Virus record (IMG/VR): IMGVR_UViG_2778261459_000001
Span: 1 to 26,517 of that record
DNA length: 26,517 bases
Direction: 5' to 3' (one strand)
From: a virus
Taxonomy: Duplodnaviria; Heunggongvirae; Uroviricota; Caudoviricetes
Both the position numbers and the translations under genes were made by a program. Below are positions 1,747-26,517 of the stretch, piece by piece (the first letter of the stretch is position 1; each line of letters starts with the position of its first letter). The notes below the pieces were generated by a model, which saw only the letters and a program-made list of their open reading frames with translations, ran no database searches and had not been told where the DNA came from.

Positions 1747-2829
1747 TTAGAACTGATAAACCAGACCTACAGCGACGATGTCGTCGGTATCAATACCAGC
1801 TGTTTTGGTAAACTTACTATCGTCAATTAAGTTGATTTTGTAATCAACAAAAGTAGACATGTTTTTATTAAAGTAGTAAGTAGCACCGACATCGACATAC
1901 TTGACTAAGTCTCGGTCACCATGAACACCAAGGTCTTTACCTTTTGACTGAAGGTAAGCAACAGATGGGCGCAGACCGAAGTCAAACTGATATTGTGCTA
2001 CTGCTTCAAAGTTTTGTGCTTTGTTTGCAATATGGTTATTACCAAAAACGGTCATATTCTGAGTTTCAGAATATGTGGTAGCCAGATAGATATTGTTCGC
2101 ATCATATTTCAGGCCTGCAGCCCATACTTCCGCATTTTTGCCGGAGGCATTGAATTTGCTCTTACCATAGGCGACCTGACCGTCAGTGCGATCTGATTTA
2201 GCATAGGTTGCACCCACGCCGAATCCTTCATACTCATAAGTAGTGGAGAAACCGAAACCATCACCATTGGCTTCAGTTACGTCAGTGCGGTCATTTTTAC
2301 CCTGATACTGAGCAGCAAAGTTCAGGCCATCGACCAGACCAAAGAAGTCGTTGTTACGATAAGTTGCAACACCAGTAGTGCGACCAGTCATGAACACATC
2401 TGTTTGGGTCCAGGTATCACCACCGAATTCTGGCAGAACGTCAGTCCACGCACCGATGTCGTATGCTACACCGTAGTTACGGCCGTAATCGATGGAGCCG
2501 TAATCACCAAATTTCAGGCCTGCAAATGCAAGACGGGTTTTGTCTTTGGAAGAACCTTGAGATTCAGCACGGTTGCCTTTGAATTCATATTCCCACTGAC
2601 CGAAACCAGTCAGTTGATCGTTGATTTGGGTTTCACCTTTGAAGCCAAGACGGGCATAAGTAGTATCACCATCATCTGCATCATTAGAGGAGAAGTAGTG
2701 CTTGGCATTAACTTTCCCGTATAGATCCAGCTTGTTACTGTCTTTATTATAAATTTCAGCTGCCTGAGCAGACATCGCCATCAGTACTGATGCAGCTACA
2801 GCAGAAATTGCCACTGTTAATTTTTTCAT
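1747..2829 (-). CDS. nmpC: outer membrane porin, OmpC/OmpD family (NmpC / phage Lc-type), apparently intact
   Basis: Translation from ATG 2829: signal peptide [23 protein letters not shown], then mature [16 protein letters not shown]... ending ...VAVGLVYQF (C-terminal Phe typical of 16-strand porins). The track ORF 1747..2889 includes a 20-codon upstream extension. Confidence 0.9.
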
Positions 2830-3255
2830 TGTACGCCCTTTTTTTGAACTATTATTAAAAAATGATGTCACTGCGCGATAAATATTCATCTAATCAATGT
2901 GATTATTTCAAGATGTAAGTTTTAGTTTCTCATTTAATTTGTGAAGTAGATCTCTATTTTTATCTGAACCTTTTCTATCTAATCCTATTCATGGCTCTTG
3001 TCTGAACAAAAATAAATCTATTAGCTAATTTATATTAATGGCACTTATTTATAAGTGCTCTATAATTCTTTAGCTTAATTTGAACAAACTAAAAATAACA
3101 TCAGAAATTATTAACTGGTTATTTGTTGAAGTTTTCTTATGCATTTGTGGTGGTGTTTTGAACACTCGGTGGCATTCTCACAAATATCATTTAGTAGTTT
3201 ACGTACGTAAAAAATTGGTTATGCTGTTAAGAGTGGTTACTTCGTCACACAGCTT

Positions 3256-3289
3256 AAACCCGCCGTCGAGCGGGTTTTTCCATTTTTTG
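3256..3289 (+). terminator. hairpin AAACCCGC-CGTCGA-GCGGGTTT plus T-run, about 130 nt upstream of the holin gene (candidate tR'-like late terminator)
   Basis: GC-rich stem followed by TTTTCCATTTTTT on the plus strand, inside the AT-rich nmpC-essD intergenic region. Confidence 0.4.
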
Positions 3290-3417
3290 AGTCTCGATAT
3301 TAGCTGATAACTCAATACCTGAGTTATTCACTGACTCCAAATCTGTTACGTTTCTGCCTTTATTGCGATACGTAGTATCCCCTTAATTTACACCCGCTTT
3401 GTCTGCGAGGTGGGGTT

Positions 3418-22773: not shown

Positions 22774-23787
22774 ATGCATCGTATAGACACGAAAACCGCG
22801 CAGAAGGATAAGTTCGGCGCGGGTAAGAACGGTTTTACCCGTGGTAACCCCCAGACCGGCACACCTGCCACCGATCTGGATGATGACTACTTTGACATGT
22901 TGCAGGAGGAACTTTGCAGCGTGGTGGAGGCATCCGGTGCCAGCCTGGAGAAGGGGCGGCACGACCAGTTACTTACCGCGCTTCGTGCGCTGCTGTTAAG
23001 CCGCAAGAATCCGTTTGGCGATATCAAATCGGATGGCACGGTGAAAACGGCTCTCGAAAACCTTGGTTTATCAGACGTTTTACATAAGGGAAATTTTGGT
23101 GTCGGGAGTAGGCTGCAAGGTAGTGCAGCCGGGAATAGCCATGTCGGTGGATTCATGTATGAACCATATCAGGCGAACAATCTTTACCCGCTAAGTGTGG
23201 CTTTAATGCAGGCAGCAGGCCCGACATCGACAGAATGGGCGCAGCTGGCTGTTTCATATGGTGGGGCATTCAGAGCTTTCCTTGGGCGACAGACTTATAA
23301 TGGAAATCCTGAAATCAGTGAGTTGTACCATGACCAGCGTAAGCCGTCTGCGTCGGATGTTGGTGCCCAACCTCTGAATGCAACTCTCACCACTCTTAGT
23401 GGAAAAGATGCGGCAGGATTAAGGAGCGTCCTAGGGCTTGGAACAACAGCCACAAGAAACGTAGGTACGGGAGCGTCACAAATACCTGATATGAGTTCGT
23501 TTTTAAGCGGATCTACAGCATCAGCTTTTTGGTACAAACTTCCTGGTGGCATGGTGGTGATGGGGGGTAATGCATCTGGAATCGCCTCTGGAACTGCAGG
23601 TAATGCGGTCTTCTTCCCAGTGCCATTCCCAAATGTTTGCTCAAGCGTTGTCGTGACATTAGTCAGCAACGGGTTATATGCCGACACAGTCTCGTTTAAT
23701 ACATATATCCCTGGAACTGACCGTTTTAACGTTTATACGAATACAAGCGGCACGTACGCTATTTATTACCTGGCGTTTGGGAGTTGA
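22774..23787 (+). CDS. tail fiber protein with conserved N-terminal anchor and divergent, lower-GC C-terminal domain
   Basis: 337 aa. N-terminus [55 protein letters not shown]... is the conserved baseplate-attachment region of this fiber family. DNA composition becomes AT-richer from about 23040 onward. Confidence 0.8.
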
Positions 23788-24205: not shown

Positions 24206-24215
24206 GGTGGACATC

Positions 24216-24380
24216 ATGGAAACACAATCAAACGAAGAACAAAAACAGAGCCAGCAACAGCAGGATTCTACCGTAAAATTCTGTCCGATATGTGGCTCAA
24301 CAATGCATCAGCAAGATTATCTGAATGGGAAATGGTGGTTTTGTGATGATGAAGAATGCGGGTTTTTTGAGCCCGTCTAA
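24216..24380 (+). CDS. small zinc-ribbon protein (54 aa, CPICG...x16...CDDEEC)
   Basis: AAGGTGG SD 5 nt before ATG 24216. METQSNEEQKQSQQQQDSTVKFCPICGSTMHQQDYLNGKWWFCDDEECGFFEPV has four Cys in two pairs. Below the track cut-off; followed by a terminator. Confidence 0.5.
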   Translation: METQSNEEQKQSQQQQDSTVKFCPICGSTMHQQDYLNGKWWFCDDEECGFFEPV

Positions 24381-24402: not shown

Positions 24403-24433
24403 AGCCCTCTCTGGAGGGCTCATATTTATTTTG
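24403..24433. terminator. bidirectional terminator (AGCCCTC-TCTG-GAGGGCT flanked by T-runs on both strands)
   Basis: Between the convergent zinc-ribbon gene (+) and acyltransferase gene (-); followed by CATATTTATTTTG on the plus strand and TTTATTCC on the minus strand. Confidence 0.5.
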
Positions 24434-25508
24434 CGTATTTCTTTCTAAACCCAAGAAATGGCTTTTCAATCAACTCAAAACATATCTTAGAAAAGATAAG
24501 AATTGCAGGTAGTAAAATCAAAAAATTAATGACAGCATTAACATTATCATTGTCGATAAACCTCGGAACTCCAAATGTTTTATGGAATGAGTAAAGAACC
24601 ACACCATGCAATATATATTCAGAAAAGCTTACCTCACCAAGTTTAGATAATCCATTATCTATAATGGCAGGTATTTTTATGCTTGACGATAAGTAAGTAA
24701 ATACAAAAATACCCCACATGCAAGCCTCCAGATATGATAAAGAACTTACATATGGTGTTGGAATGTACCATAAACCCTCAGATCTAAGTGTTAAAAGAGA
24801 AAAGAAGACAATTGCAGAACTGGCGATGATAAAGATCGGATTAGCGAATTTATCCTTATGGTTTATATATAGATATCCAAACACCATCCCAATTAATAGC
24901 TGATCAAATCGACCAAGCATTGTTAAGTAGTAATAATGATTGTTCAGATATGAATCCGACCCTAATTCCCCACCATAGATTGTAACGATCATGGTTCTCC
25001 AGGCAAGCCAAAAAAGAGACAGATACACAATATACTTCACACCATATCTGTTAAGAAAAAGAGCTAGGAAAGGAAATATTAAGTAAAATTGAAATTCTAC
25101 TGCTATAGTCCACGTTTGCCCGAAATGAGCCAGCAACGGTGATGTTTGCAAATTCGAGAAAAGGAACAAGGATAAAGCATCAGAAAATGTGGCAGTACCT
25201 CTAGATAGAGACATGGCGGTAATCCATGCTACAGAAAGGAGTGGGAAGATGCGAATAAATCTATTGAAGATAAAAGGCTTATAAGAAATATCCTTTTTTC
25301 CGCCATTCGATATGATGGTGAATAGAAATCCACTAAGCACCAAAAATAGCGTAACTCCAGTATCACCAGCAAGCATGAAATTTATAAATGGATTGTTCGA
25401 TTTCTTTCCTCCGAACGCCGTATAAGAATGAACAAAAACAACAAATGTTGCTGCAAAAAAACGAAGGTGGTCAATCCTTGACAGGTATTGTGAGTTTAGA
25501 CTTTTCAT
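24426..25508 (-). CDS. integral membrane acyltransferase, family 3 (Oac/OafA-like O-acetyltransferase)
   Basis: 360 aa, about 10 predicted TM segments. N-terminal signature RIDHLRFFAATFVVFVHS (Arg...His motif of the acyltransferase-3 family). Gene is strongly AT-rich relative to the flanking phage genes and is divergently oriented. Confidence 0.85.
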   Translation of the reverse strand: MKSLNSQYLSRIDHLRFFAATFVVFVHSYTAFGGKKSNNPFINFMLAGDTGVTLFLVLSGFLFTIISNGGKKDISYKPFIFNRFIRIFPLLSVAWITAMSLSRGTATFSDALSLFLFSNLQTSPLLAHFGQTWTIAVEFQFYLIFPFLALFLNRYGVKYIVYLSLFWLAWRTMIVTIYGGELGSDSYLNNHYYYLTMLGRFDQLLIGMVFGYLYINHKDKFANPIFIIASSAIVFFSLLTLRSEGLWYIPTPYVSSLSYLEACMWGIFVFTYLSSSIKIPAIIDNGLSKLGEVSFSEYILHGVVLYSFHKTFGVPRFIDNDNVNAVINFLILLPAILIFSKICFELIEKPFLGFRKKYAK

Positions 25509-25628
25509 CTTTATCCACTTGAAAATGAAAAAATATTAGCATGTAAGACGATGTCGCGCCACGGATCATTAGTCGTAAAAAGCACGAGTTTTTTGTTGCA
25601 TGCACTGATTGACGCCATCGATCAATAA

Positions 25629-25648
25629 TACTGTATGCACATACAGCT
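25629..25648 (+). promoter_or_regulatory. LexA (SOS) box TACTGTATGCACATACAGCT
   Basis: CTGT-N8-ACAG palindrome (CTGTATGCACATACAG) matching the E. coli SOS-box consensus TACTGT(AT)4ACAGTA, about 20 nt upstream of the UmuD'-like start; GGAGGTGG SD at 25655-25662. Confidence 0.6.
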
Positions 25649-25665
25649 TACATTGGAGGTGGTCC

Positions 25666-25953
25666 ATGGGGTTCCCGTCGCCAGCGGCAGACCACATTGA
25701 AGAGCACATATCACTCGATAAGCGCCTTATCGCACATCCTTCTTCCACGTATATGATGATATCCGGAACGACATACCTTCGAGCCGGAATCATGAAAGGA
25801 GCCATGCTCATCGTCGACTCATCGCTGACACCAAAAGATGGCTTCCTGCTTGTCTGTGCGGTTGATGGTGAGTTCAGGATCATGCGCTACAGGACACATC
25901 CTCAACCTTGCCTTGAAAACCCTGAAAATGGGAGGGGGGAGCCGTTACTGTAA
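25666..25953 (+). CDS. UmuD'-like (HumD-like) protein, S24 peptidase fold with substituted catalytic dyad; C-terminally short
   Basis: From ATG 25666: [38 protein letters not shown]...[22 protein letters not shown]... aligns to E. coli UmuD from Gly25 ([37 protein letters not shown]...LLIVDS...AAVDGEF). The UmuD GDSM Ser position is Thr (GTTY) and the Lys position (VKKL) is Met/Arg (IMRY). About 20 C-terminal residues are missing relative to UmuD'. Confidence 0.65.
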   Translation: [95 protein letters not shown]

Positions 25954-26027
25954 GTATCCCGCATAATCGTGCCATTCATATTTAGAGATCATCCGGCATA
26001 ATCAATCTGGCAACAAAGGAGATCGCT

Positions 26028-26169
26028 ACGCATAAAGCCCGTTTTACTGAGCATCAGATCATCGCTGTGATTAAGTCAGTTGAAGCCAGACGAACCGTTA
26101 AAGATGTCTGCCGGGAGGCCGGTAACTCTGAAGCCACCTACTACAACTGGAAGTCCAGATACGGCGGCA
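26028..26169 (+). mobile_element. IS3-family (IS407-group-like) transposase OrfA 5' fragment, start codon degenerate (ACG), truncated after the HTH
   Basis: AAGGAG SD, then ACG where ATG is expected. Translation (T)[46 protein letters not shown] matches the OrfA HTH motif of IS3-family elements from memory (MKKRFTEQQII...SFYTWRAKFGGME). Similarity ends abruptly at about 26170. Confidence 0.5.
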
Positions 26170-26256
26170 TGGAAGACATATCGGGTATTGCTGAACCGGG
26201 TTGATACATCAGTAGCACCGAATATTGAGTGGCCTGCAGAACCAGGCACAATGTAA
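26164..26256 (+). pseudogene. tail fiber assembly protein (tfa) 3' remnant
   Basis: Frame +1 translates to ...[30 protein letters not shown], the conserved C-terminal signature of Tfa proteins (lambda Tfa ends ...[29 protein letters not shown]). No corresponding N-terminal part upstream. Confidence 0.6.
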
Positions 26257-26517
26257 GCGAAAAATGAAAACCGTAGCACGTCGTATGCAAGATCGTGCGC
26301 GGCTGGCTGGTGAACTTCCGATAGTGCGAGTATTGAATTATTTCCAACTGTTATCGATTTTGCGTATTTTTTGCATGAGAGGATTTTTACCTCCTCCCAC
26401 CGATCCTCCATGGCTTTACGCCAGTGTCTCTGGTCTGCTATGTGCCAGGAGCAGCCATTGCTAAGTCCATCCTGTATTGTGCAGGTCAGCTCGTTTTTAA
26501 AGAGTCCGGCCATCATC

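Follow-up and report, generated by a model that had tools for sequence, protein, structure and literature searches.

The open reading frame (ORF) behind a LexA box near the right end of the window, by which we mean the whole 26,517-nt stretch of caudovirus DNA analysed here, is very probably what an insertion sequence (IS) has left of a humD gene, a truncated pseudogene remnant at the decayed end of a prophage. Apart from the truncation, which is explained by the IS, all of the unusual traits of the locus are known traits of the HumD family, and the locus is not a new system. The 95-codon fragment itself is most likely inactive. The discovery value of the locus is small, as it represents textbook prophage-end decay and RefSeq already labels the gene as a HumD-family or S24 gene. 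The initial annotation had proposed either a novel SOS-induced phage accessory or a relic truncated by the adjacent IS, and it is the relic that our results support.

The truncated humD ORF (25666-25953, plus strand) starts with ATG at 25666 and ends with a TAA stop codon at 25951-25953, encoding a product of 95 residues. A TTG at 25609 was rejected as the start; it is listed because the ORF list gives the first possible start, and it is the ATG that has a Shine-Dalgarno sequence, a GGAGG read at 25655-25659 (plus strand), 6 nt upstream. A purine-rich element, GGAGG or GAGG, is found at the equivalent site in Escherichia coli MB52, HK639 and P1. An ORF on the opposite strand (25569-25883, 104 residues) had no PHROG match and was treated as spurious.

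The identity of the product was examined with family models and with alignments to UmuD', P1 HumD and HK639. NCBIfam NF051876, ‘HumD family translesion DNA polymerase’, was matched with 136.4 bits against a cut-off of 120, the match covering only positions 1-92 of the 129 in the model. Pfam Peptidase_S24 and PHROG 811 (‘UmuD-like protein’) also matched the 95-residue product, and a full-length relative matched UmuD' (PDB 1UMU) with an E value of 1e-19 in a HMMER sequence comparison. As had been noticed from the sequence, the product begins at the residue that forms the N-terminus of UmuD'; its N-terminus, M-GFPSPAAD, lies on residues 25-32 of UmuD, with Gly2 on Gly25, both when the full-length relative was aligned to 1UMU with HMMER and when MAFFT was used. 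The equivalent Gly is invariant in the HumD family (88 of 88 members), and the window ORF carries no cleavable N-terminal arm. The model for the autoproteolytic subunit of pol V (NF007621) gave 79.1 bits, under its cut-off of 110. Taking this together with the missing arm, the missing catalytic dyad and the missing umuC, we ruled out a UmuD-type autoproteolytic pol V subunit or an active S24 peptidase. LexA or a phage CI-type repressor was likewise ruled out, because the window protein corresponds to the S24 part only, without the N-terminal DNA-binding domain, and the LexA model scored 37 bits against a cut-off of 111. The absence of a following umuC-like gene, also claimed initially, was confirmed: umuC was found neither downstream of the ORF nor anywhere in the prophage, and an IS remnant, a tail-fibre-assembly remnant, a hypothetical gene and flxA come next.

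A short product of this kind is out of line with the family. The humD relatives at all 80 IMG/VR viral-contig loci encode 129 residues, and 88 of the 120 protein-cluster representatives listed have 126-130. All 80 viral-contig relatives stand alone without umuC, and among the 35 loci with at least 1.3 kb of downstream sequence, none had a same-strand ORF of at least 300 residues downstream of humD. The best-known member is P1 HumD, described in the relevant part of PMC7092418, citing McLenigan et al. 1999, as a UmuD' homologue that is pre-activated and lacks a umuC partner. The note on humD in the P1 record reads ‘functionally complements E. coli UmuD'’. Substitution for UmuD' in SOS mutagenesis, together with the host UmuC and RecA, is recorded in these passages of PMC7092418 and in the P1 record for P1 HumD only; by analogy, intact relatives would act in the same manner. 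A pre-processed start, LexA control and the lack of umuC are thus the defining traits of the P1 HumD family as published in the corresponding sections of PMC7092418 and PMC9603915. With these traits already on record, and with the catalytic substitutions found throughout a clade as described below, the claim of a novel SOS-induced accessory could not be upheld.

Comparison with individual systems placed the window copy within this family. It shares with P1 HumD the start at the equivalent of UmuD Gly25, the LexA box just upstream, the stand-alone arrangement without umuC and the location on a phage or prophage. On the other hand, P1 HumD has 129 residues with Ser and Lys at the dyad positions (ADSH...RIKRY), whereas the window copy has 95 codons, Thr36 and Met73, and lacks model positions 93-129; its identity to P1-type HumD proteins is only 50-60%, and the divergently oriented gene is lxr in P1 and an acyltransferase gene in the window. 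The closest relatives are HK639-type HumD proteins, namely the HK639 protein labelled ‘UmuD’, WP_053276251.1 of E. coli and proteins of Enterobacter prophages. Identity reaches 89% with the Enterobacter proteins, and the DNA is 83% identical to the E. coli copy. Thr and Met at the dyad positions, a box at -35 and a position at the prophage end beside tail-fibre and integrase genes are common to all of them, but the HK639-type proteins have 129 residues with a conserved FGVITYSINDARSGEFDDCPVM end, while the IS truncates the window copy after codon 94. With E. coli UmuD and UmuD' (PDB 1UMU, 1AY9, 1I4V and 8GMT), the shared feature is the S24 fold, with homology over UmuD residues 25-117. UmuD differs in being a 139-residue precursor that cleaves itself at Cys24-Gly25 by means of Ser60 and Lys97 and is co-transcribed with umuC; at the window locus, the N-terminal arm, the dyad and umuC are all absent.

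The truncation could be located to the base. In a DNA alignment with the humD genes of HK639 and MB52, the window is collinear up to 25948 (...GAGCCGTTAC) and the alignment is then broken. The humD-derived part, 25666-25948, comprises codons 1-94 and the first base of codon 95, and the last sense codon CTG (C|TG) is completed, and the TAA stop supplied, by the end of the IS. Thus 94 humD codons survive and 35 are lost. The initial estimate that some 20 residues of the UmuD fold are missing agrees with a deficit of about 22 residues relative to UmuD; relative to HumD, 35 of 129 are missing. From 25949 onwards (TGTAAGTATCCCGCATAATCG...), the sequence matches nt 1-225 of an intact IS3-family element (L011, 2001-3235; about 1235 bp) with 96% identity. 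The IS remnant (25949-26173, plus strand) keeps only these leftmost 225 nt, that is, the left terminal repeat TGTAAGTATCCC... and the 5' part of orfA (26022-26174), the partial product of which was matched by NCBIfam transpos_IS3 and is labelled ‘transposase, incomplete’ in RefSeq. Intact copies have the ends TGTAAGT...ACTTACA and encode an orfAB transposase with a programmed frameshift. The claim that the gene is a relic truncated by the adjacent IS is therefore borne out, the homology to humD ending at 25948 and the IS terminal repeat beginning at 25949.

The IS itself is also incomplete. It is broken after nt 225 and abuts a remnant of a tail-fibre-assembly gene (26167-26256, plus strand; RefSeq annotation mapped from L001, 6768-6857), indicating that a second event removed the remainder of the IS along with the 3' end of humD. 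When the missing 3' part of humD was searched for, the window and the related loci L001, L003, L008, L009 and L010 gave only short matches at chance level. Annotation pipelines disagree on whether the ORF is a gene or a pseudogene. RefSeq labels it ‘S24 family peptidase’ and treats it as an ordinary CDS in most genomes, and PGAP called one copy ‘HumD family translesion DNA polymerase, incomplete; missing C-terminus’. The disagreement is settled by the precisely mapped IS junction, which identifies the ORF as a truncated gene. The initial annotation had supposed that a full-length umuDC operon in relatives would expose the copy as truncated; relatives do carry the full-length gene, but as a stand-alone humD and not as a umuDC operon. 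We also noted, among public assemblies, a variant of the same locus (P0001, corresponding to 25666-25953) in which the TAA is read as Tyr and the product, now 111 residues, runs into the IS terminal repeat (...EPLLYVSRIIVPFIFRDHPA).

What has been lost is the last beta-strand (VFGVITYSI), which aligns to VFGVVIHVV of UmuD', and the most conserved tail of the family, NDARSGEFDDCPVM. The C-terminal signature FGVIT..INDARSGEFDDCPVM, conserved in HumD proteins of about 129 residues, is accordingly missing from the window ORF. Conservation is complete, or at least 90%, at residues F108, G109, V110, I111, T112, I115, N116, D117, R119, G121, E122, F123, D124, D125, P127 and V128. Within the part that remains, the window copy departs from the family at five columns with a conservation of 90% or more, two of these changes being S60F (100%) and R14H (99%). 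Structure prediction had been proposed at the outset as a means to judge the truncated protein. The AlphaFold model of the closest full-length relative, itself moderate, had a mean pLDDT of 71.9 and a pTM of 0.62, residues 107-115 formed the last strand, and its best structural matches in the PDB were UmuD and UmuD'. At equal alignment depth, the 95-residue product gave a pLDDT of 53.3 and a pTM of 0.41, with residues 1-52 below 50. The decrease is suggestive of a poorer fold in the predicted models, confidence not being the same as stability.

The same truncated allele occurs in several E. coli genomes. The humD-IS junction was identical base for base in the four that were checked, and the truncated allele differed by at most one amino acid across four genomes from pigs, chickens and humans. 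The module of acyltransferase gene and humD was present in about 13 E. coli genomes among the matches listed, all of which carry the IS remnant. In E. coli FORC_082 (L010, 3550-6776) the junction is the same, and more of the IS is left, up to nt 1196, with a deletion inside it. Next come a DUF6056 gene and a gene for a yfdH/gtrB-like glycosyltransferase, an O-antigen glucosylation cluster of the gtr type. This arrangement points to different later rearrangements after one ancestral insertion, and the layout in FORC_082 may be closer to the ancestral one. On a wider scale, humD-like DNA was found in 827 of 5426 complete E. coli genomes, and many of the matches were bare 3' remnants at prophage ends, indicating that decay of humD is common. 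In many Stx-converting phages and O157:H7 chromosomes, all that is present of humD is a 3' fragment located at the prophage end (residues ~45-128, or nt 320-388). Incomplete copies of humD are thus widespread and fall into several independent kinds.

We considered the possibility that the 95-residue fragment has been retained because it acquired a new function, for example as an SOS-induced dominant-negative protein or decoy acting on UmuC, RecA* or the beta clamp, which would damp or redirect translesion synthesis in the host with no active pol V being formed. Counting against a pseudogene, the reading frame of the remnant is clean and ends with an in-frame stop at the junction, and it is preceded by a good ribosome-binding site and a high-scoring LexA box. 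The near-identity of the allele in genomes from pigs, chickens and humans, the recurrence of the module in the listed genomes, and the retention of the N-terminal arm and most of the beta-core can be read in the same way. However, a single identical IS junction in copies that are 96-100% identical indicates one recent event rather than convergent retention. The most conserved segment and a core strand are gone, predicted foldedness is lower, invariant positions are substituted, and the read-through of the stop into the IS in the P0001 variant suggests that the C-terminus is unconstrained. The neighbours are decaying as well, as seen in the IS remnant, the tail-fibre-assembly remnant and an internal stop in the acyltransferase gene of FORC_082. 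Relative to full-length relatives, dN/dS was 0.04-0.14, but the ratio is silent on later selection, as the truncated alleles hardly differ from one another and most of the divergence predates the truncation. Retention through a new function is therefore unlikely, and it is improbable that the fragment is, in particular, an SOS-inducible decoy on UmuC, RecA* or the beta clamp that modulates host mutagenesis.

It is still less probable that the gene is a fully functional HumD for which the missing C-terminal residues are dispensable. The score does exceed the family cut-off, and the lost tail has no counterpart in UmuD, which ends shortly past the last strand. Nevertheless, the strand that aligns to UmuD' was removed together with the tail and is invariant, or nearly so, across the family, the full-length relatives all keep their 129 residues, and the break in homology coincides exactly with the end of the IS.

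Concerning the regulation of the gene, a near-consensus LexA box had been reported in front of it, and the box is indeed present. The sequence TACTGTATGCACATACAGCT (25629-25648, no strand assigned) was taken as a LexA (SOS) box on the basis of its motif, its matrix score, its conserved offset and its counterpart in P1. Its core, CTGT-N8-ACAG, lies at 25631-25646, and the box ends 17 nt upstream of the ORF. The core occurs only once in the whole window; this is not significant alone, since 0.28 occurrences of the bare 16-nt pattern per window would arise by chance and 24 of 100 shuffled sequences contained at least one. Agreement with the 20-nt LexA consensus (15 of 20 positions) was also reached in 18 of 200 shuffles and is weak by itself, and we therefore used the matrix score and conservation in place of the count of matches. 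With a weight matrix made from 18 literature operators of E. coli LexA, a set not taken from a curated file, the box scored 22.6 bits; the operators themselves range from 13.3 to 27.6, and the second-best site in the window scored 8.9.

The position of the box is conserved. A LexA-like box was found upstream of humD in nearly all of the 80 viral-contig loci examined, the commonest placement among these IMG/VR loci being a start 35 nt before the humD ATG. The box of the window has this same offset of -35. HK639, N15 and E. coli MB52 have it at the equivalent place despite differing flanks, and in the GenBank record of P1 a LexA binding site, the counterpart of the box in the window, is annotated 19 nt upstream of humD. 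The humD gene is described as a LexA-regulated SOS gene in the relevant section of PMC9603915. Two further layouts were seen among the IMG/VR loci, one with a tandem LexA-like pair at -61 and about -37 (CTGGATGGATATACAG...CTGTGTTTTTATCCGG) and another in which a small gene precedes humD and the box lies in front of both, about 275-303 nt upstream. Layouts that differ from that of the window were observed in loci L044-L091, in the control region upstream of humD at 2501; the one with the distant box is a two-gene operon in which humD is translationally coupled to the small ORF, an arrangement also seen in HK140, which has dinI next to it as well. We consider positional conservation to be stronger evidence for the box than the matrix score, and the site at 25629-25648 would be bound by LexA.

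No promoter or terminator was detected between 25350 and 26300 in scans with consensus sequences (sigma-70 for promoters). A -10-like AATAAT at 25624-25629 abuts the box, with no convincing -35 partner. An Rfam scan of 25300-26517 gave nothing above threshold (for example, IS009 with 31 bits against 117). That the palindrome arose by chance and the ORF is not under SOS control, an explanation with which the shuffling frequencies and the empty promoter scan would agree, is very unlikely in view of a score typical of real operators, an equal position in dozens of divergent relatives with different flanks, and the LexA site and LexA regulation recorded for humD in the P1 record and in that section of PMC9603915.

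We then turned to the catalytic dyad, which the initial annotation had described as replaced by Thr and Met/Arg. This was correct, as Thr36 lies on Ser60 of UmuD and Met73, followed by Arg74, on Lys97; neither the HMMER nor the MAFFT alignment restored Ser and Lys to these positions. A first tally of the dyad over 88 representatives was biased to the clade of the query and was repeated with 69 distinct full-length proteins from viral contigs. As a result, Ser and Lys were found in 33, Thr and Lys in 22, Thr and Met in 13, and Ala and Lys in one. Among these distinct proteins, the dyad is thus kept in about half, half-lost (Thr and Lys) in a third and fully lost (Thr and Met) in a fifth. P1 HumD has Ser and Lys, while gp26 of N15 and the HK140 protein have Thr and Lys. 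Thr and Met occur in full-length form in HK639, in WP_053276251.1 of E. coli and in many proteins from Enterobacter prophages. Between the humD genes of HK639 and MB52, dN/dS was 0.13. Judging from these comparisons, the Thr/Met state is the normal one of a full-length clade under purifying selection, and not decay peculiar to the window copy; because the clade is under such selection, the substitutions represent a maintained state of working genes. Pre-cleaved UmuD' reportedly tolerates the loss of Ser60. The Thr/Met state is consistent with a protein synthesised in the ‘cleaved’ form, for which no cleavage remains to be done, and dyad loss under purifying selection provides a natural demonstration that the protease chemistry is dispensable in a pre-processed protein. 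The only mildly new point here is that a clade of full-length HumD proteins has lost the Ser-Lys dyad. On a broader but improbable reading, the HK639-type Thr/Met clade would show that HumD proteins have turned into purely non-catalytic adaptors, and their role in the prophage may differ from pol V activation.

The history of the locus can be pictured as follows. An intact humD of 129 codons would be repressed by LexA and expressed only once RecA* inactivates LexA. Without an N-terminal arm, the protein would need no self-cleavage and, by analogy with P1 HumD, would join the host UmuC and RecA for translesion synthesis. As no self-cleavage is needed, the Ser-Lys dyad would be dispensable, and one clade exchanged it for Thr and Met. 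In the lineage of the window, an IS3-family element presumably inserted after codon 94, and a later deletion would have taken most of the IS along with the last 35 humD codons. The outcome would be a 95-codon ORF under an SOS box, with a stop codon derived from the IS and a LexA box that simply persists.

The surroundings of the ORF were examined with respect to the element that carries it. The window is 99.9% identical to E. coli S1-INA-02-A over the 1118 bases compared and corresponds to the late half of a prophage that is integrated at thrW, next to proA. In this prophage, lambda-like regulation (CI-type S24 repressor, O/P and Q) is combined with an HK97-type head and a Mu/P2-type contractile tail. 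A P1-like DNA context was rejected, since a megablast search of 25400-26517 against phages returned the IS and lambda-like fragments and no P1 match. The host element is a myovirus prophage with lambdoid regulation at thrW, and not a P1-type plasmid prophage. The humD remnant lies at the far right end, past the tail-fibre genes and the divergent acyltransferase gene, which is the usual ‘moron’ position for humD; in 22 of the 80 viral contigs, humD is immediately followed by the contig end, and it adjoins int/attP in HK639 and HK140. The acyltransferase-3 family gene (24426-25508, minus strand; Pfam PF01757, 106 bits; PHROG 3333, O-acetyltransferase) is the upstream divergent neighbour of the humD control region and lies outside the humD unit. 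The gene, which resembles O-antigen acetylases, is likely a lysogenic-conversion moron.

Several other features of the prophage were observed. The region 26167-26468 is a mosaic of decayed prophage pieces in front of flxA and the pao operon, and about 26271-26468 is 84% identical to phage lambda 24162-24362. At 22774-23787 (plus strand), a single ORF of 337 residues combines a StfP-like N-terminal part with a gp53-like C-terminal domain (Pfam PF21882); RefSeq splits this region into an ‘stfP pseudogene’ and a gp53-like CDS, and it looks like a chimeric but intact tail-fibre gene. A DUF3800 gene at about 2560-3363, on the opposite (minus) strand between the Q antiterminator and holin genes, occupies the slot of stx in Stx phages and is a probable moron. 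Finally, between the tail-fibre assembly gene and the acyltransferase gene, there is an ORF of 57 residues (24207-24380, plus strand) with no PHROG match, which occurs in related prophages as WP_021548946.1 and contains two CxxC-like pairs (CPICG...CDDEEC), suggesting a zinc ribbon.
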